A DNA stretch of 64,000 nt from Escherichia coli (GCF_009931435.1 NZ_CP043414.1), one strand, 5' to 3'. Numbered from the stretch's first letter, positions 6,280-39,647 are shown. The notes: generated from the sequence alone by a model not told the origin. Numbers and translations are program-made.

Positions 6280-6897
6280 ATGAAAGCTTCACTGGCGTTG
6301 TTCAGTCTTCTGACGGTATTTACCAGTTACTCCTTAAAATCTCCCGCTGTTCCACCAACCGTGGTACAAATCCAGGCCAACACCAATCTTGCCATCGCAG
6401 ACGGTGCCAGACAGCAAATTGGCAGCACGCTATTTTACGATCCGGCGTATGTGCAGCTTACTTATCCTGGCGGTGATGTCCCACAAGAACGCGGTGTATG
6501 TTCCGATGTGGTGATCCGTGCTCTGCGCAGCCAGAAGGTCGATTTGCAGAAACTGGTTCACGAAGATATGGCGAAGAATTTTGCCGATTATCCGCAAAAG
6601 TGGCAGTTAAAGCGCCCGGACAGCAACATCGATCACCGTCGGGTGCCTAATCTGGAAACCTGGTTTACCCGCCACGATAAAACGCGCCCCACCAGCAAAA
6701 ACGCCAGTGACTACCAAGCGGGCGATATTGTCTCCTGGCGATTAGATAATGGGCTGGCACATATTGGGGTGGTTTCAGATGGCTTCGCCCGCGACGGTAC
6801 GCCGCTGGTGATACATAACATTGGCGCAGGCGCGCAGGAAGAAGACGTGCTGTTTAGTTGGCAGATGGTGGGGCACTATCGGTATTTTGCTAAATGA
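6280..6897 (+). CDS. yijF: DUF1287-family secreted protein
   Basis: ORF-track 214 aa; start placed at internal MKASLALFSLL signal peptide, giving K-12 length 205 aa. Confidence 0.8.
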   Translation: MKASLALFSLLTVFTSYSLKSPAVPPTVVQIQANTNLAIADGARQQIGSTLFYDPAYVQLTYPGGDVPQERGVCSDVVIRALRSQKVDLQKLVHEDMAKNFADYPQKWQLKRPDSNIDHRRVPNLETWFTRHDKTRPTSKNASDYQAGDIVSWRLDNGLAHIGVVSDGFARDGTPLVIHNIGAGAQEEDVLFSWQMVGHYRYFAK

Positions 6898-6921
6898 GCG
6901 CTCGCCCCACCTGTAAAAAAT

Positions 6922-7827
6922 TCAGATCCTTTTTACGCTGACGGCTTCTTTTTTCTTACGGCTCACCAGCGCCAGTGCCAGCACAATCAGCACAATACCG
7001 CTGCCTTCAACCGCGCCGGGATTTTCACCGAGCAGCCACCAGGAAAAGAGTACGCCGCAAACAGGAACTGCTAACGTGCTTAGGCTGGCGATACTGGCGG
7101 GTAAGTTTTTCAATACAAACAGCCATAAACTCCAGGCCAGCGCTGTCGCCAGAATCGCACTGTAGGCCAGCGCCCAGAACACGGTGGGCTGCCAGTCAAT
7201 TTCACGTTGCGGCACCAGCCAAGCGACTACGCTCATCACCAGCGCCGCATACAGCATCTGCCAGGATGTTAGCGACAATAAATCCACGCGCGGATGGCGG
7301 GCATACAGACGTTTAGCAACAATCGCGCTCGCCCCCCAACTCACACCGGAGAGGATTGCCAGCATGGCACTTTTCATCGAAGATAAATCGAGTTGCCACG
7401 GCTGCAACACCAAAAATAAGCCGAAAGCGGCAATGAGAATCGCGAAATATTGCCCGCGTCGCAGGCGTTCACCGAGAAACAACGCGGCGAAAATCACCAC
7501 CCAGAATGGCATGGTATAGCTCAGGATTGCCACCTTCCCTGCTCCGCCGCTCACCAGCGCCCACTGCGCCAGGCCAACCATCCCGCAGGTTTGTAACAGG
7601 GCAATGGCTAAGGTGTATTTAAAGGGCGTCGGGCGCATGCCGCGACCGCGTAATAAAAGGACGATGAATAAAACGAGAGCGCCGAAAATGCAGCGTAAAG
7701 CGGTAAAGTCGAAGGCACCGATGTAGCTGGTGACTTGCTTCATGAAAATCCAGCTATAACTCCAGATAAGTGTGAGCACAACCAGGCCACTGATTGCCAG
7801 TGGGTTGCTCTTTCCTGCGGCAGACAT
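6922..7827 (-). CDS. yijE: EamA/DMT-family inner-membrane transporter
   Basis: ORF-track 312 aa; start placed at [10 protein letters not shown] (301 aa); ten predicted TM helices. Confidence 0.8.
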
Positions 7828-7920
7828 GAGAGATCCAGTGTGTAGTTTTCCTGTGGACACTATACGCCGGTAAAGAAACTTCAGCGACTGCCTGAAAGAC
7901 AGTCGCTGAAGAAGGTCAGA

Positions 7921-10155
<2,235 letters not shown>

Positions 10156-28900: not shown

Positions 28901-30144
28901 TGTTCCTTTTTCACCACCCGCTTCAGCCCGCCTTCGCCTGCGGTATGCAGGACTTCATGGCGGTCCAGGCTGTCGGTGATGGTGATGCGGTCTTTCTCAT
29001 ACTGATACGTGTAGCTTAAGCCTGCCGGGTTTAGCTGTTCTGTCACCCGCCCGTCGCTGTCGTAACGGTAACGGATTTCCGGCCGGCCCGTGTGACGGTG
29101 CGCCACCATCCGGCCCCGGTATTTATCATCGTAAGTAAAGCTGCGCACCTGTGTATTGCTGCGGTCATACACCGCCGCCAGTTCGCCGCGCGGCGTCCAG
29201 CCATAGCGCACCAGCGGCGTGGCTGGCAGGTTGTCCGGGTATTCCGGGTCGTGCGTCAGCCACACGGCAGACAGACGGATACCGTTGTCCCGGCCATATT
29301 CCGTGTAGTCCGGCAGGGTATCAGGAAAAGCGGACTGTTCCGCCCCGCCGGAAGAGGCCTGCTGCCGGGCCTCTTCTGCCCGCTGCGCCTGCGTGGTCAG
29401 TGCCAGCCGGAAGTGACGCCCGGCACCATCCGTCACGCCGGTGATTTCGCCGCTGAATTCACCGGCGGCTTCGCGGTGAAACGTCTGTGTGCGCCCGAAG
29501 CGGTCCACCAGCCCGGTCAGTACCCGGTACGGCGGCAGCGGCGCGGGCAGCACCTCATCCGCCTCCGGCACCCGCTCACACCAGCCGAGTACCCACCACG
29601 GCCCCTGCGGACTGTTCGTCGCCAGATAACGATGCGGACTCAGGCGAAGCTCTTCCGGCAGCGCCTGCCAGAGTGCGGCCAGCCGGTGACCTTCATCCAG
29701 TCTCAGGACGCCGCCGCGCACCAGCCAGAGTGACTCGCTGCGGCTGTAACCGTCCTCACCGGGAAACAGGTGCTCAAAATACAGGCTTCTGCCGCCGTTA
29801 TCACTGAGTATCAGTGTGTTATCGCGCAGCTGTAAGCGGATATCCGCAGGCATTTTCCAGCCGGGGCCGAGAATACCCACCGGCGCGGGCGTTTTTGTCC
29901 GGTAACTGCTGTACGTGCGGGAGAGGATGAACGGCAGCGGTCCGGGCAGGGCAATGTCTGTCTCGCCGGGAAGGACCTTTGCACCGAGCAGGGGATTGAC
30001 CGGATGGCCGGACGTCACCCCGCCGGGGCACACCGAACAGGCCACGCCGGTGGGGGCACCAATACGTACCCCGGCTGAACCCTGAACAATGCTACCGCCA
30101 TACTGCGTCATGTCGCCCTGACGCGCCGCCGGTTTTCCGCTCAT
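25960..30144 (-). CDS. Rhs-family protein with variable C-terminal toxin domain
   Basis: 1394 aa; N-terminus [23 protein letters not shown] typical of E. coli RhsA/B/C-class; YD repeats; DPLGL boundary motif then a 147-aa AT-rich C-terminal tip. Confidence 0.9.
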
Positions 30145-30262
30145 CGTAAAATCCTTTTAAAATAAATAAGAACCAGAAGCCTAGCGCCAGTCAACAACAG
30201 GAAATGATAATGAGTTAACACCCCGGAATTTTTCAGAATTTATAAAAGGCAAATTACAGGCA

Positions 30263-30559: not shown

Positions 30560-32917
<2,358 letters not shown>

Positions 32918-33072
32918 TGCGCAAACGATGCGAGGCGGATCGAAAAATTCAATATTCATCACACTTTTCATGAAAATTCTGTAACCGTTTTCACGCGCTA
33001 TCTGCTAAAAATGTTGCCGATGTGAAGTAAACATGGAAGTAGTACGCCTGCCGTGCCGGGCGAGGAGTGAGT

Positions 33073-34098
33073 GTGAAAGCGAAGAAGCAGGAAACTGCCG
33101 CGACCATGAAAGACGTTGCCCTGAAGGCAAAAGTCTCTACAGCGACCGTCTCCCGAGCATTAATGAATCCCGATAAAGTCTCCCAGGCCACCCGTAATCG
33201 GGTTGAAAAAGCGGCCCGGGAAGTAGGTTATTTGCCGCAGCCTATGGGGCGCAACGTCAAGCGTAATGAATCCCGTACCATTCTGGTGATTGTCCCGGAT
33301 ATCTGCGATCCCTTCTTTAGCGAAATTATTCGCGGTATCGAAGTTACGGCGGCAAATCACGGATATCTGGTGCTGATTGGCGACTGTGCGCATCAAAATC
33401 AGCAGGAAAAAACCTTTATCGATTTGATTATCACCAAGCAAATTGATGGCATGTTGCTGCTGGGTTCAAGGCTGCCGTTTGATGCCAGCATTGAGGAACA
33501 GCGTAATCTGCCGCCGATGGTGATGGCGAACGAATTTGCGCCGGAACTGGAGCTGCCTACAGTTCATATCGACAATTTGACCGCGGCATTTGATGCAGTA
33601 AATTATTTATATGAGCAAGGTCATAAACGGATTGGCTGTATAGCCGGTCCCGAAGAGATGCCGCTGTGTCACTACCGCCTGCAAGGCTACGTTCAGGCGC
33701 TGCGTCGCTGCGGCATTATGGTTGATCCGCAATACATCGCCCGGGGCGACTTCTCCTTTGAAGCCGGAAGCAACGCGATGCAACAGCTGCTTGCTCTTCC
33801 GCAACCGCCTACTGCTGTCTTCTGCCATAGCGATGTAATGGCGCTCGGCGCACTTTCTCAGGCAAAACGCCAGGGGCTGAAAGTCCCGGATGATCTGTCC
33901 ATAATCGGTTTTGATAACATCGACCTGACGCAATTTTGTGATCCGCCGCTGACAACCATCGCGCAGCCGCGTTACGAAATCGGTCGGGAAGCTATGCTGT
34001 TATTGCTTGATCAAATGCAGGGGCAACACGTTGGCAGTGGCTCTCGTTTAATGGACTGCGAACTTATCATCCGGGGATCAACGCGCGCGTTACCTTAA
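33073..34098 (+). CDS. cytR: LacI-family transcriptional repressor CytR
   Basis: GTG start, 341 aa (KAKKQETAATMKDVALKAKVSTATVSRAL HTH). Confidence 0.88.
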   Translation: MKAKKQETAATMKDVALKAKVSTATVSRALMNPDKVSQATRNRVEKAAREVGYLPQPMGRNVKRNESRTILVIVPDICDPFFSEIIRGIEVTAANHGYLVLIGDCAHQNQQEKTFIDLIITKQIDGMLLLGSRLPFDASIEEQRNLPPMVMANEFAPELELPTVHIDNLTAAFDAVNYLYEQGHKRIGCIAGPEEMPLCHYRLQGYVQALRRCGIMVDPQYIARGDFSFEAGSNAMQQLLALPQPPTAVFCHSDVMALGALSQAKRQGLKVPDDLSIIGFDNIDLTQFCDPPLTTIAQPRYEIGREAMLLLLDQMQGQHVGSGSRLMDCELIIRGSTRALP

Positions 34099-34189
34099 AG
34101 TAAACCTTTAAGACTGCCGTGACTGGTCAAAGGCCCGCCGCTTAAGTAACATGGCGGGCTGACGAACGAATAAATACAGCGAAACGATA

Positions 34190-35137
34190 GTGGCACAACG
34201 AGATTATGTACGCCGCAGCCAACCGGCACCTTCGCGGCGAAAAAAAAGCACCTCACGGAAAAAGCAACGAAATCTGCCTGCGGTTTCTCCCGCAATGGTC
34301 GCTATTGCTGCCGCCGTTCTTGTGACCTTTATCGGTGGTCTGTACTTCATTACGCATCACAAGAAAGAAGAGTCCGAGACGCTGCAAAGCCAGAAAGTGA
34401 CCGGAAACGGATTACCACCGAAACCAGAAGAACGCTGGCGCTACATTAAAGAGCTGGAAAGTCGCCAGCCGGGTGTGCGTGCACCAACAGAACCTTCTGC
34501 CGGTGGTGAAGTGAAAACGCCGGAGCAACTGACACCAGAACAACGTCAGCTTCTTGAACAAATGCAGGCTGATATGCGCCAGCAGCCAACGCAGCTGGTT
34601 GAAGTTCCGTGGAATGAACAGACGCCGGAACAGCGTCAGCAAACGCTTCAACGTCAGGCACAACAGCGTCAGATTCAGGCGGCTCAACAGCAGCAGCGTC
34701 AGGCTGAGCAGGCATATCAACAACCGCGTACCGCGCAAGCGCAGCAACCACCGCGCCAGACGCAGCAGACTCGCCAGGCGGCTCAGCAGCCGTACCAGGA
34801 TCTCCTGCAAACGCCAGCACACACTGCCGCGGCGCAGCCGAAGTCACAGCAAGTCGCGCCTGTTAGCCGGGCCGCTGACGCGCCAAAACCGACGGCGGAG
34901 AAAAAAGACGAACGCCGCTGGATGGTGCAGTGCGGTTCGTTCAGAGGCGCGGAACAGGCAGAGACGGTACGTGCTCAGCTGGCGTTTGAAGGCTTTGACT
35001 CGAAAATTACCACCAACAATGGCTGGAATCGTGTGGTGATTGGCCCGATTAAAGGGAAAGAAAATGCCGACGGCACCCTGAATCGCCTGAAGATGGCGGG
35101 TCATACAAACTGTATTCGACTCGCTACCGGGGGTTGA
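34190..35137 (+). CDS. ftsN: Cell division protein FtsN
   Basis: 315 aa; basic N-terminus, TM segment, Q-rich linker, C-terminal SPOR domain. Confidence 0.9.
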   Translation: MAQRDYVRRSQPAPSRRKKSTSRKKQRNLPAVSPAMVAIAAAVLVTFIGGLYFITHHKKEESETLQSQKVTGNGLPPKPEERWRYIKELESRQPGVRAPTEPSAGGEVKTPEQLTPEQRQLLEQMQADMRQQPTQLVEVPWNEQTPEQRQQTLQRQAQQRQIQAAQQQQRQAEQAYQQPRTAQAQQPPRQTQQTRQAAQQPYQDLLQTPAHTAAAQPKSQQVAPVSRAADAPKPTAEKKDERRWMVQCGSFRGAEQAETVRAQLAFEGFDSKITTNNGWNRVVIGPIKGKENADGTLNRLKMAGHTNCIRLATGG

Positions 35138-35163
35138 AACCCTCAAAATCCCCCCCATCTATA
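35134..35163 (+). promoter_or_regulatory. Sigma-32 heat-shock promoter of hslVU
   Basis: TTGAAA ... CCCCATCTA with about 13-bp spacing, close to the sigma-32 consensus, about 70 bp upstream of hslV. Confidence 0.55.
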
Positions 35164-35229
35164 ATTGCATTATGCCCCGTACTTTTGTACGGGGTTTGTA
35201 CTCTGTATTCGTAACCAAGGGGTCAGCTC

Positions 35230-35760
35230 GTGACAACTATAGTAAGCGTACGCCGTAACGGCCATGTGGTCATCGCTGGTGATGGTCAGGCCACGTTGGG
35301 CAATACCGTAATGAAAGGTAACGTGAAAAAGGTCCGCCGTCTGTACAACGACAAAGTCATCGCGGGCTTTGCGGGCGGTACTGCGGATGCTTTTACGCTG
35401 TTCGAACTGTTTGAACGTAAACTGGAAATGCATCAGGGCCATCTGGTCAAAGCCGCCGTTGAGCTGGCAAAAGACTGGCGTACCGATCGCATGTTACGCA
35501 AACTTGAAGCACTGCTGGCAGTCGCGGATGAAACCGCTTCACTGATCATCACCGGTAACGGTGACGTGGTGCAGCCAGAAAACGATCTTATTGCTATCGG
35601 CTCCGGCGGCCCTTACGCCCAGGCTGCGGCGCGCGCGCTGTTAGAAAACACTGAACTAAGCGCCCGTGAAATTGCTGAAAAGGCGTTGGATATTGCAGGC
35701 GACATTTGCATCTATACCAACCATTTCCACACCATCGAAGAATTAAGCTACAAAGCGTAA
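35230..35760 (+). CDS. hslV: ATP-dependent protease subunit HslV
   Basis: 176 aa, N-terminal Thr ([11 protein letters not shown]). Confidence 0.95.
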
Positions 35761-35769
35761 GGATCTCCC

Positions 35770-37101
35770 ATGTCTGAAATGACCCCACGCGAAATCGTCA
35801 GCGAACTGGATAAACACATCATCGGCCAGGATAACGCCAAGCGTTCCGTGGCGATTGCACTGCGTAACCGCTGGCGTCGCATGCAGCTTAACGAAGAGCT
35901 GCGCCATGAAGTGACCCCGAAAAATATCCTGATGATCGGCCCGACCGGTGTCGGTAAAACTGAAATCGCTCGTCGTCTGGCTAAGCTGGCGAATGCGCCG
36001 TTCATTAAAGTTGAAGCGACCAAATTCACCGAAGTGGGCTATGTAGGTAAGGAAGTGGATTCTATTATCCGCGATCTGACCGATGCCGCCGTGAAAATGG
36101 TACGCGTCCAGGCTATTGAGAAAAACCGTTATCGCGCTGAAGAACTGGCAGAAGAACGTATTCTCGACGTGCTGATCCCACCGGCTAAAAACAACTGGGG
36201 ACAGACCGAACAACAGCAGGAACCGTCCGCTGCTCGTCAGGCATTCCGCAAAAAACTGCGTGAAGGCCAGCTCGATGACAAAGAAATCGAGATCGATCTT
36301 GCCGCAGCACCGATGGGCGTTGAAATTATGGCGCCTCCGGGAATGGAAGAGATGACCAGCCAGCTGCAGTCCATGTTCCAGAACCTGGGTGGTCAGAAAC
36401 AAAAAGCGCGTAAGCTGAAAATCAAAGACGCCATGAAGCTGCTGATTGAAGAAGAAGCGGCGAAACTGGTGAATCCGGAAGAGCTGAAGCAAGACGCTAT
36501 CGACGCCGTTGAACAGCACGGGATCGTGTTTATCGACGAAATCGACAAAATCTGTAAGCGCGGCGAGTCTTCCGGTCCGGATGTTTCTCGTGAAGGTGTT
36601 CAGCGTGACCTGCTGCCGCTGGTAGAAGGTTGCACCGTTTCCACCAAACACGGGATGGTCAAAACTGACCACATTCTGTTTATCGCTTCTGGCGCGTTCC
36701 AGATTGCGAAACCGTCTGACCTGATCCCGGAACTGCAAGGTCGTCTGCCAATCCGCGTTGAACTGCAGGCACTGACCACCAGCGACTTCGAGCGTATTCT
36801 GACCGAGCCGAATGCCTCTATCACCGTGCAGTACAAAGCACTGATGGCAACTGAGGGCGTAAATATTGAGTTTACCGACTCCGGTATTAAGCGCATCGCG
36901 GAAGCAGCATGGCAGGTGAACGAATCTACCGAAAACATCGGTGCTCGTCGTTTACATACTGTTCTGGAGCGTTTAATGGAAGAGATTTCCTACGACGCCA
37001 GCGATTTAAGCGGTCAAACTATCACTATTGACGCAGATTATGTGAGCAAACATCTGGATGCGTTGGTGGCAGATGAAGATCTGAGCCGTTTTATCCTATA
37101 A
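35770..37101 (+). CDS. hslU: ATP-dependent protease ATPase subunit HslU
   Basis: 443 aa, Walker A GPTGVGKT. Confidence 0.95.
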
Positions 37102-37130
37102 TCGCGTTCAATCATTTTCATCATTGTTTG

Positions 37131-37155
37131 ATGGGGCTGAAAGGCCCCATTTTTA
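37131..37155 (+). terminator. hslVU intrinsic terminator
   Basis: GGGGCTGAAAGGCCCC followed by ATTTTTATT. Confidence 0.6.
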
Positions 37156-37167
37156 TTGGCGCGTATT

Positions 37168-38094
37168 ATGACTGAACAACAAATTAGCCGAACTCAGGCG
37201 TGGCTGGAAAGTTTACGACCTAAAACCCTTCCCCTCGCCTTTGCTGCAATTATCGTCGGGACGGCGCTGGCATGGTGGCAAGGTCACTTCGATCCGCTGG
37301 TCGCCCTGCTGGCACTGATTACCGCCGGACTGCTTCAAATTCTCTCTAACCTCGCTAATGATTACGGCGATGCAGTAAAAGGCAGCGATAAACCTGACCG
37401 CATTGGCCCGCTACGTGGCATGCAAAAAGGGGTCATTACCCAGCAAGAGATGAAACGGGCGCTCATTATTACCGTCGTGCTCATCTGTCTCTCCGGACTA
37501 GCACTGGTTGCAGTGGCGTGCCATACGCTGGCCGATTTTGTCGGTTTCCTGATTCTTGGCGGGTTGTCGATCATTGCCGCTATCACCTACACCGTGGGCA
37601 ATCGTCCTTATGGTTATATCGGTCTGGGTGATATTTCCGTACTGGTTTTCTTTGGCTGGTTAAGCGTCATGGGCAGCTGGTATTTACAGGCTCATACGTT
37701 GATTCCGGCGTTGATCCTTCCGGCGACCGCATGCGGCCTGCTGGCAACGGCAGTACTGAACATTAATAACCTGCGTGATATCAATAGCGACCGCGAAAAT
37801 GGCAAAAACACGCTGGTGGTGCGCTTAGGTGAAGTGAACGCGCGTCGTTATCATGCCTGCCTGCTGATGGGCTCTCTGGTGTGTCTGGCGCTGTTTAATC
37901 TCTTTTCACTGCATAGCCTGTGGGGCTGGCTGTTCCTGCTGGCGGCACCATTACTGGTGAAGCAAGCCCGTTATGTGATGCGGGAAATGGACCCGGTGGC
38001 GATGCGACCGATGCTGGAACGCACTGTCAAGGGAGCGTTACTGACTAACCTGCTGTTTGTTTTAGGGATATTCCTAAGCCAGTGGGCAGCATAA
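37168..38094 (+). CDS. menA: 1,4-dihydroxy-2-naphthoate octaprenyltransferase
   Basis: Start MTEQQISRTQAWLESLRPKTL; 308 aa; UbiA-family membrane prenyltransferase. Confidence 0.9.
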   Translation: MTEQQISRTQAWLESLRPKTLPLAFAAIIVGTALAWWQGHFDPLVALLALITAGLLQILSNLANDYGDAVKGSDKPDRIGPLRGMQKGVITQQEMKRALIITVVLICLSGLALVAVACHTLADFVGFLILGGLSIIAAITYTVGNRPYGYIGLGDISVLVFFGWLSVMGSWYLQAHTLIPALILPATACGLLATAVLNINNLRDINSDRENGKNTLVVRLGEVNARRYHACLLMGSLVCLALFNLFSLHSLWGWLFLLAAPLLVKQARYVMREMDPVAMRPMLERTVKGALLTNLLFVLGIFLSQWAA

Positions 38095-38186
38095 CTGACA
38101 AATATCAATTAACAATTGATGATTTTGCCAACAGCCCACATAGCGCGATATACTGAAAATTCTCGCAGCAACTGAATGTTAAGCCT

Positions 38187-38930: not shown

Positions 38931-39647
38931 ATGAGATACGTTATCTTATTAATACTATGGATAATAACTACTTTTCTTAGTCATCTTCAGCACAGCAACC
39001 TACTGTCTGGAGATCCTGGCATGGTTGGCGAGTATATCGGTTCAGTATTTCTGGGGCCGTTGTTACTTCCCGTGCTTGTGTCAGGTATTCTGTGCGCATT
39101 TATTAAAAAAAAACGTAACTTCGCCAGTTTTACTCGCGGGTGCTGTTGGGTATTGGGAATCCTGCTTTTATCCAAAGTCGGCAATACGTTTCGTATGTTT
39201 ACCCCGTGGCAATATACCTTTGAGAATGCTGCGATAACCGTGACTATCCCGAACCGACACTGGAATACGGTTTCCATCAGTACTAATAAAACCATTGATA
39301 TAAGAAGTGAGGATAATAGCGTCTTCATTTCTGCTTTCCGCCTGCCCGCAGGACGTAGCGCCGATGACCCGCTGGAAGCGTTAAAGAAGAAGCAGCGAGA
39401 CAATCTCAAGGATCAATACAATGAGGAAGCCTTCCAGTTTCATGATTGTAATGCCAAACATTTCACCTGTAAGTATCAGGATGTGTTGATAAATTTTGAT
39501 GGTCAGCAGAAAAGAACCATCAGTGTTTATCTTGAAGACACCCCCAGGGCTGTGGGGATCATTGCATTAATGGCGCCAGATACGGCAGATAAATATCGCC
39601 AACAGGCGATGGAGATTATGCTTTCCGCTAAAAATGCAGTGAAGTAA
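38931..39647 (+). CDS. Hypothetical membrane-anchored protein (strain-specific)
   Basis: 238-aa ORF; N-terminal hydrophobic segments (predicted TM) then a ~150-aa soluble domain; preceded by ~240 bp of very AT-rich DNA; no family recognised. Confidence 0.5.
   Translation: MRYVILLILWIITTFLSHLQHSNLLSGDPGMVGEYIGSVFLGPLLLPVLVSGILCAFIKKKRNFASFTRGCCWVLGILLLSKVGNTFRMFTPWQYTFENAAITVTIPNRHWNTVSISTNKTIDIRSEDNSVFISAFRLPAGRSADDPLEALKKKQRDNLKDQYNEEAFQFHDCNAKHFTCKYQDVLINFDGQQKRTISVYLEDTPRAVGIIALMAPDTADKYRQQAMEIMLSAKNAVK

Follow-up and report, generated by a model that had tools for sequence, protein, structure and literature searches.

Recombination between related species is well known to produce mosaic alleles, with the penicillin-binding-protein genes of Streptococcus and Neisseria as examples. 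In these systems a conserved gene with native flanks switches abruptly from recipient to donor sequence, with the crossover located in a short stretch of identity, and the gene ftsN of an Escherichia coli genome (GCF_009931435.1, NZ_CP043414.1), located in the window of 64,000 nt that represents the whole stretch of DNA analysed, switches likewise. Different from the mosaic penicillin-binding-protein genes, a selectable phenotype is not evident in the case of ftsN, and a disordered tether has been exchanged together with a nearly unchanged domain. Length polymorphism of coding tandem repeats through slipped-strand mispairing (VNTR-like alleles) is a second described system with which the locus can be compared, as the 24-nt unit at 34657-34704 likewise expands and contracts in rare relatives (FtsN of 331 and 307 aa), but the window and E. 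coli K-12 do not differ by the number of units.

FtsN consists of a cytoplasmic tail (residues 1-33), a transmembrane helix (34-53), three short helices, one of which is the essential E domain (Leu75-Gln93), an unstructured Q-rich linker (129-225) and the SPOR domain (243-319) (PMC7939390). The linker is long, flexible and largely disordered and allows contact of the SPOR domain with denuded glycans at the same time as engagement of FtsWIQLB by the E domain (bioRxiv 10.1101/2024.05.13.594014). That the gene product in the window is FtsN, as proposed in an earlier note made from the sequence alone, is confirmed by the scores for two NCBIfam FtsN equivalogs (NF008179, 641.7 bits covering residues 1-315, cut-off 525; TIGR02223, 350.4 bits, cut-off 107.65), the SPOR domain and the setting between cytR and hslVU, with the gene order priA-cytR-ftsN-hslV-hslU as in K-12 and other E. 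coli. The RefSeq annotation of this gene in E. coli is equally ftsN. Gene, position and architecture are those of K-12 FtsN, the SPOR domain of which has an NMR structure (PDB 1UTA), but linker residues ~156-235 are of different sequence, with several indels and a net loss of four amino acids. FtsN of Escherichia fergusonii (B7LUS1_ESCF3/CAQ91274.1, 314 aa; P0012 type, 315 aa), on the other hand, is essentially identical to the window protein in the linker from Q156 onwards and in the SPOR domain, but possesses its own N-terminal half, while the N-terminal half of the window protein is that of E. coli.

The open reading frame encodes 315 aa and ftsN of K-12 MG1655 has 960 nt, equivalent to 319 aa (WP_000068828.1), so that both lengths given in the earlier note are correct. 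On the protein level, residues 1-155 are identical between the window and K-12 and divergence starts thereafter; on the DNA level, identity over 128 nt directly precedes an abrupt switch at 34648. From there to the end of the gene (34648-35137), 127 out of 520 aligned positions (24%) differ from K-12, compared with 31 out of 1561 nt at 33067-34627 (Fisher p = 6e-53). The pairwise alignment with K-12, which had been proposed as a check on length variation, reveals two different sequences with 4-5 separate gaps of both signs (e.g. -9, +21, +9, -6 and -3 nt) and a net difference of -12 nt. All gaps, and with them all indels behind the 315 versus 319 aa, fall into 34648-34870, in agreement with their earlier placement inside the linker. 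In a sliding comparison with K-12 the flanks show 97-100% identity and 34590-34857 only 46-73%, and within 34640-34890 only the last ~109 nt can be aligned (82%). A frameshift with subsequent re-shift as the origin of the changed peptide was rejected, as the DNA itself has diverged and about half of the block is not alignable to K-12. Substitutions extend beyond the linker through the SPOR domain, hslV and hslU. The SPOR domain, with its conservation judged by alignment to 1UTA only, shows three differences (V->I, S->G, A->T) over 77 aligned K-12 residues and retains both cysteines.

The divergent sequence was mapped by diagnostic sites, at which four non-carrier E. coli (K-12, GN05505, LR-28 and O157:H7 493/89) have the same state and none of the five E. 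fergusonii loci (L084-L088, with L084 being GCA_020034675.1) shares it, while five other E. coli carriers of the allele were also aligned. The sites distinguish a tract of E. fergusonii type from flanks of E. coli type (Table 1; Fisher p = 7e-95). Position 34627 is the last site of E. coli type and 34648 the first of E. fergusonii type; upstream, at 34400-34627, all 23 sites with a difference between the E. coli references and mainstream E. fergusonii are of E. coli type. The tract ends between 36399 and 36414, the latter an E. coli-type site, within hslU, and thus spans ~1.75 kb, from the linker, of which the distal two-thirds are included, through the SPOR domain and hslV to ~630 nt into hslU. 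Compared with E. fergusonii L084, the nearest E. fergusonii sequence, 299 out of 1561 positions differ in cytR and the 5' part of ftsN (33067-34627, ~19%), 10 out of 520 at 34648-35137 (~98% identity), 8 out of 1263 at 35138-36400, where the window differs from K-12 at 27, and 18 out of 1783 (~1%) over the whole tract. In line with the DNA, FtsN proteins named E. fergusonii (P0011-P0014, P0019; 304-315 aa) retrieved in a protein search show 94-98% identity to the window protein and have the same linker, and the N-terminal changes of E. fergusonii FtsN (S10G, L29M, VKTPEQ->VINPDQ) are not found in the window.

The best explanation, with a probability of around 90%, is a chimeric ftsN, into which homologous recombination has brought E. 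fergusonii-type DNA. Codons 1 to ~152 are ordinary E. coli sequence and nt 34648 to ~36399 an E. fergusonii-type allele, which was most likely acquired by an ancestor within E. coli through an upstream crossover in the shared stretch 34628-34647. The difference between 315 and 319 aa would be the net outcome of indels accumulated between the species' versions of a fast-evolving, disordered, Gln-rich tether, and would predate the strain of the window rather than having arisen there.

Table 1. Features of the ftsN-hslVU region, counts of diagnostic sites and site types within the E. fergusonii-type tract. Positions are those of the window.
Feature	Position (nt)	Strand	Details
ftsN	34190-35137	+	315 codons plus stop, GTG start; chimeric allele
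E. coli-type 5' part of ftsN	34190-34627	+	cytoplasmic tail, TM helix, E domain, helix H3, linker start
TM helix, aa 34-53	34289-34348	+	K-12 numbering, limits from PMC7939390
Essential E domain, aa 75-93	34412-34468	+	K-12 numbering, limits from PMC7939390
Pair of 24-nt direct repeats, 90 nt apart	34527-34550 and 34617-34640	+	each ..TPEQRQ..; repeat family D1
Crossover interval	34628-34647		20 nt identical in E. coli and E. fergusonii; alignment, site runs
E. fergusonii-type Q-rich linker block, aa ~153-227	34648-34870	+	diagnostic sites, BLAST
Imperfect 24-nt x 2 tandem repeat	34657-34704	+	8-aa unit, QQRQIQAA / QQQQRQAE; Tandem Repeats Finder: period 24, 2.0 copies, 79% matches
Remainder of the putatively imported tract	34871-36399	+	ftsN 3' end, hslV (35230-35760), hslU 5' ~630 nt (from 35770)
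SPOR (peptidoglycan-binding) domain, aa 242-309	34913-35116	+	Pfam PF05036, E = 5.5e-18; inside the putatively imported tract
Diagnostic sites, upstream	31190-34627		314 sites: E. coli-type 300, E. fergusonii-type 9, neither 5
Diagnostic sites, tract	34628-36399		119 sites: E. coli-type 0, E. fergusonii-type 117, neither 2
Diagnostic sites, downstream	36400-38100		E. coli-type 112, E. fergusonii-type 7, neither 3
Sub-mosaic, E. fergusonii-type	34648-34870		93 sites (2 match E. coli, 3 neither)
Sub-mosaic, E. coli-like	34871 to ~35000		18 sites
Sub-mosaic, E. fergusonii-type	~35008-35137		14 sites
Sub-mosaic, E. coli-like	35138-35760		27 sites; across hslV
Sub-mosaic, E. fergusonii-type	35761-36399		10 sites

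Outside of the tract, two candidate regions did not hold. E. fergusonii-like stretches in priA, seen upon comparison of K-12 with one E. fergusonii, vanish with four E. coli references and represent E. coli polymorphism, and an E. fergusonii-like patch at 38128-38139 was an alignment-end artefact, gone in a longer alignment. Six close E. fergusonii-type sites at 37329-37344 in the 5' part of menA, ~900 nt past the tract, are common to the window and the other five carriers; they could be a second small import or a shared E. coli polymorphism. In addition, priA at 31790-32240 shows 87-94% identity to K-12 (100-nt windows) and is diverged also in comparison with E. fergusonii and the carrier Z0117EC0005, which points to other recombination tracts nearby.

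The distribution of the linker block sets the allele apart within E. coli. By megablast, the block 34640-34890 is found in 18 out of 5,426 complete E. coli genomes (0.33%), in each case with at least 99.6% identity and without intermediates, and with K-12 ftsN as the query 5,397 out of 5,425 E. coli genomes are at least 95% identical. A survey of linker length, as suggested in the earlier note, shows K-12-type ftsN with exactly 960 nt in 96 out of 97 cases (evenly spread samples, 59/59 and 37/38). Rare repeat variants do exist; linker length in E. coli is almost fixed at 319 aa, with the window representing a sharply separate minority haplotype. The exact 315-aa protein (P0121) is encoded on 56 contigs named E. 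coli, and the 90% cluster that contains it is represented by E. fergusonii FtsN B7LUS1_ESCF3/CAQ91274.1.

Outside of E. coli, all five E. fergusonii genomes and all E. fergusonii-named proteins examined (including CAQ91274.1) possess the block, and in E. fergusonii it continues directly from the 5' sequence specific to this species. A scan of 80 enterobacterial ftsN loci from GTDB species representatives, among which E. fergusonii was not included, did not detect the block, and its interpretation as an orphan sequence on this basis was overturned by the protein search that matched E. fergusonii FtsN. Escherichia whittamii, Escherichia albertii, Escherichia sp. E1V33, sp. MOD1-EC7003 and strain E69 carry K-12-like blocks with 79-93% identity. 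The best DNA match of the block outside of Escherichia is Citrobacter amalonaticus with 70%, and with QRQAQQRQIQ at its start the block is closer to QRQAQQRQVQ of C. amalonaticus FtsN than the K-12 type is. Next to ftsN, cytR of E. fergusonii (L086:4882-5907, versus window 33073-34098) is an outlier allele without a close relative among the 80 species loci, with ~75-77% DNA identity to E. coli, E. albertii, E. whittamii, Citrobacter and Salmonella alike; hslV and hslU of E. fergusonii, adjacent to this outlier, are 95-97% identical to E. coli.

The periplasmic linker is, as described earlier, a low-complexity Q/R/A-rich region. In the interval highlighted at the time, aa 121-214 (34550-34830), 36% of the residues are Gln, 14% Ala and 9% Arg, with 24 CAG, 10 CAA and 5 CGT among the 94 codons, compared with 2-6% Gln in the genes neighbouring ftsN, and the peptide quoted from it, QRQAQQRQIQAAQQQQRQAEQAYQQPRTAQAQQPPRQTQQTRQAAQQPYQ, is present at aa 154-203 (nt 34649-34798). 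The description of its coding sequence as imperfect CAG/CGT-rich repeats applies weakly, namely to the tandem repeat at 34657-34704, which is the sole array reported by Tandem Repeats Finder. Other direct repeats in a repeat search are few, short and dispersed, and the rest of the linker is compositional bias and not a repeat array. The linker contains no homopolymer or short-unit tract, and nothing points to phase variation. Open reading frames of 133-161 aa that overlap the linker (34412-34822 and 34446-34847 on the minus strand; 34554-35039 on the plus strand in another frame) are stop-free by-products of the CAG/CGN-rich composition, with no sign of being genes.

Genuine slippage at 34657-34704 does occur, but in other, rarer variants. 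E. coli GCA_017978965.1 (L096) possesses the haplotype of the window with a clean insertion of 48 nt between identical flanks, which corresponds to exactly two additional 24-nt units, resulting in 3.5 copies at 98% and a 331-aa protein, and in protein comparison a 307-aa FtsN variant lacks 8 aa at the site of this repeat. Among K-12-type alleles, a 341-aa FtsN contains the 11-aa unit TTEQSWQQQTR three times (+22 aa), and deletions that give 285 and 292 aa are also present. The 349-aa FtsN of Shigella flexneri (P0020), likewise of K-12 type, carries a 30-aa duplication of LLEQMQADMRQQPTQLVEVPWNEQTPEQRQ, of which, judged from the protein sequence, the two TPEQRQ repeats are likely the endpoints. 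The linker thus tolerates repeat-mediated indels.

That slippage or unequal crossing-over in the CAG/CGT-rich tract has cut four codons from a K-12-like ftsN, along the lines of the strain-specific repeat variation suggested in the earlier note, is nevertheless extremely unlikely and, for 315 versus 319 aa, refuted by the alignments. While the region is Q-rich, has the 24-nt imperfect tandem repeat and gives rise to real variants (+48 nt, -8 aa, +22 aa, +30 aa), for which the idea is true, the window does not differ from K-12 in this way: 127 differences in 520 aligned positions and 4-5 gaps of both signs do not amount to a loss of units, the net 12 nt correspond to just half of the sole tandem unit (24 nt), and divergence goes on as substitutions through the SPOR domain, hslV and hslU. 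Moreover, the block is identical in E. fergusonii and cannot be derived from K-12 by unit deletions alone, and the K-12-type alleles hold to 960 nt in 96 out of 97 cases. The chance that an assembly or sequencing artefact accounts for the allele is practically negligible, as the block recurs with at least 99.6% identity in 18 independent complete genomes, the exact protein is found on 56 contigs and the frame is intact, even though misassembly is possible in low-complexity regions.

Two further explanations accept the relationship with E. fergusonii, but not an import into E. coli. In an ancient trans-species polymorphism the two haplotypes would be older than the split of E. coli and E. fergusonii, with the rare one persisting in E. 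coli in the absence of any transfer. Alleles split since speciation should, however, diverge at least as much as their flanks, and a tract with ~1% divergence from L084 next to ~19% in the adjacent cytR and the 5' part of ftsN argues against such an origin, as do the abruptness of the switch, which takes place within 20 nt, and the K-12-like blocks of the other Escherichia species examined. This explanation is therefore considered very unlikely, although it would be compatible with the occurrence of the allele in E. coli with different flanks and cytR alleles, that is, not in one recent clone. Transfer in the opposite direction, by which E. fergusonii would have received the block from a rare E. 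coli lineage with the block as its native sequence, is also hardly probable. All E. fergusonii examined carry the block in continuity with E. fergusonii-specific 5' sequence, only 0.33% of the complete E. coli genomes have it, and the C. amalonaticus-like start of the block fits vertical descent in E. fergusonii, while E. coli-like patches in the tract of L084 make some flow from E. coli to E. fergusonii plausible. For the linker block itself, the direction from E. fergusonii to E. coli is favoured on the basis of frequency and context, with the block being present in all E. fergusonii seen, its rarity in E. coli and its Citrobacter-like start.

The tract itself is not uniform. When scored against the four type-strain-like (mainstream) E. 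fergusonii only, E. fergusonii-type and E. coli-like segments alternate (Table 1), and this sub-mosaic pattern is common to the window and E. fergusonii L084. Correspondingly, L084 at 6459-8210 (equivalent to window 34648-36399) differs by 3-10% from type-strain-like E. fergusonii at the E. coli-like patches, which comprise the 5' part of the SPOR domain and all of hslV. The patches of L084 suggest exchange at ftsN-hslVU in both directions; either the donor was L084-like and already mosaic, or DNA of an E. coli carrier has moved back into the L084 lineage. As even the nearest sequence among the five E. fergusonii genomes compared on the DNA level still differs by ~1% over the tract, the true donor lineage lies outside the sampled E. 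fergusonii.

Among the six carriers included in the DNA-level comparison, the 5' junction of the window is common to the five others. The crossover interval 34628-34647 is also that of carriers L002 and L094, and carriers L089, L092 and L093 show two additional E. fergusonii-type sites at 34594 and 34609. The details of the 3' end, the flanking context and the cytR alleles vary among carriers. Comparison of the carriers suggests one old import with subsequent reshuffling within E. coli, such that the imported allele would have a single origin. A more far-reaching proposition is that E. coli and E. fergusonii have exchanged DNA at ftsN-hslVU repeatedly and in both directions, and that the E. 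fergusonii-type half with linker and SPOR domain would be kept in several E. coli backgrounds as advantageous, for example by giving the septal-peptidoglycan sensor a tether of different length or sequence, and not by neutral hitch-hiking; this is regarded as unlikely.

The wider region differs among genomes as well. A 238-aa open reading frame with a hydrophobic N-terminal half is located between rraA and zapB (38931-39647, plus strand); in the same interval a 208-aa (627-nt) hypothetical protein is annotated in carrier genomes; K-12 and E. fergusonii lack the gene. LR-28 and O157:H7 have ~520 nt extra between rraA and zapB with a second hypothetical gene. Upstream of priA, a gene for an RHS element core protein (~29000-30145, minus strand) abuts rpmE, as in 2013C-4282. 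Other carriers have yiiX in place of the RHS gene, with the goat strain R32_14_1F showing also a TIGR02117-family gene, at the position of which E. fergusonii has a PF09601/DUF2459 gene.

With respect to function, the 315-aa FtsN is expected to be fully functional and phenotypically neutral, as no difference from K-12 is found in the FtsA-binding tail, transmembrane helix and E domain, a lack of structure is reported for the linker and the SPOR domain shows three conservative differences only. Four residues fewer in a tether of ~100 residues should be immaterial. A paper on this ftsN mosaic was not found in the literature consulted here on other points. Public databases already contain the variant protein under E. 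coli names, and the mosaic is a fresh example of a familiar phenomenon.

For the biology of cell division, the finding is of little import, as the essential parts of FtsN are unchanged. It shows that small length differences in low-complexity coding regions need to be assessed by alignment before slippage is blamed. Concerning gene flow, E. fergusonii is held to be outside of the E. coli gene-flow unit, with limited recombination (PMC9830988), and the locus would provide a cleanly mapped import from E. fergusonii to E. coli in an essential gene, crossing a border treated as a species boundary. Finally, the chimeric gene represents a natural experiment, in which ~75 residues of the FtsN linker are replaceable wholesale, with other variants being 8-30 residues longer or shorter, and such a replacement fits a flexible spacer for which the exact sequence is of little importance.
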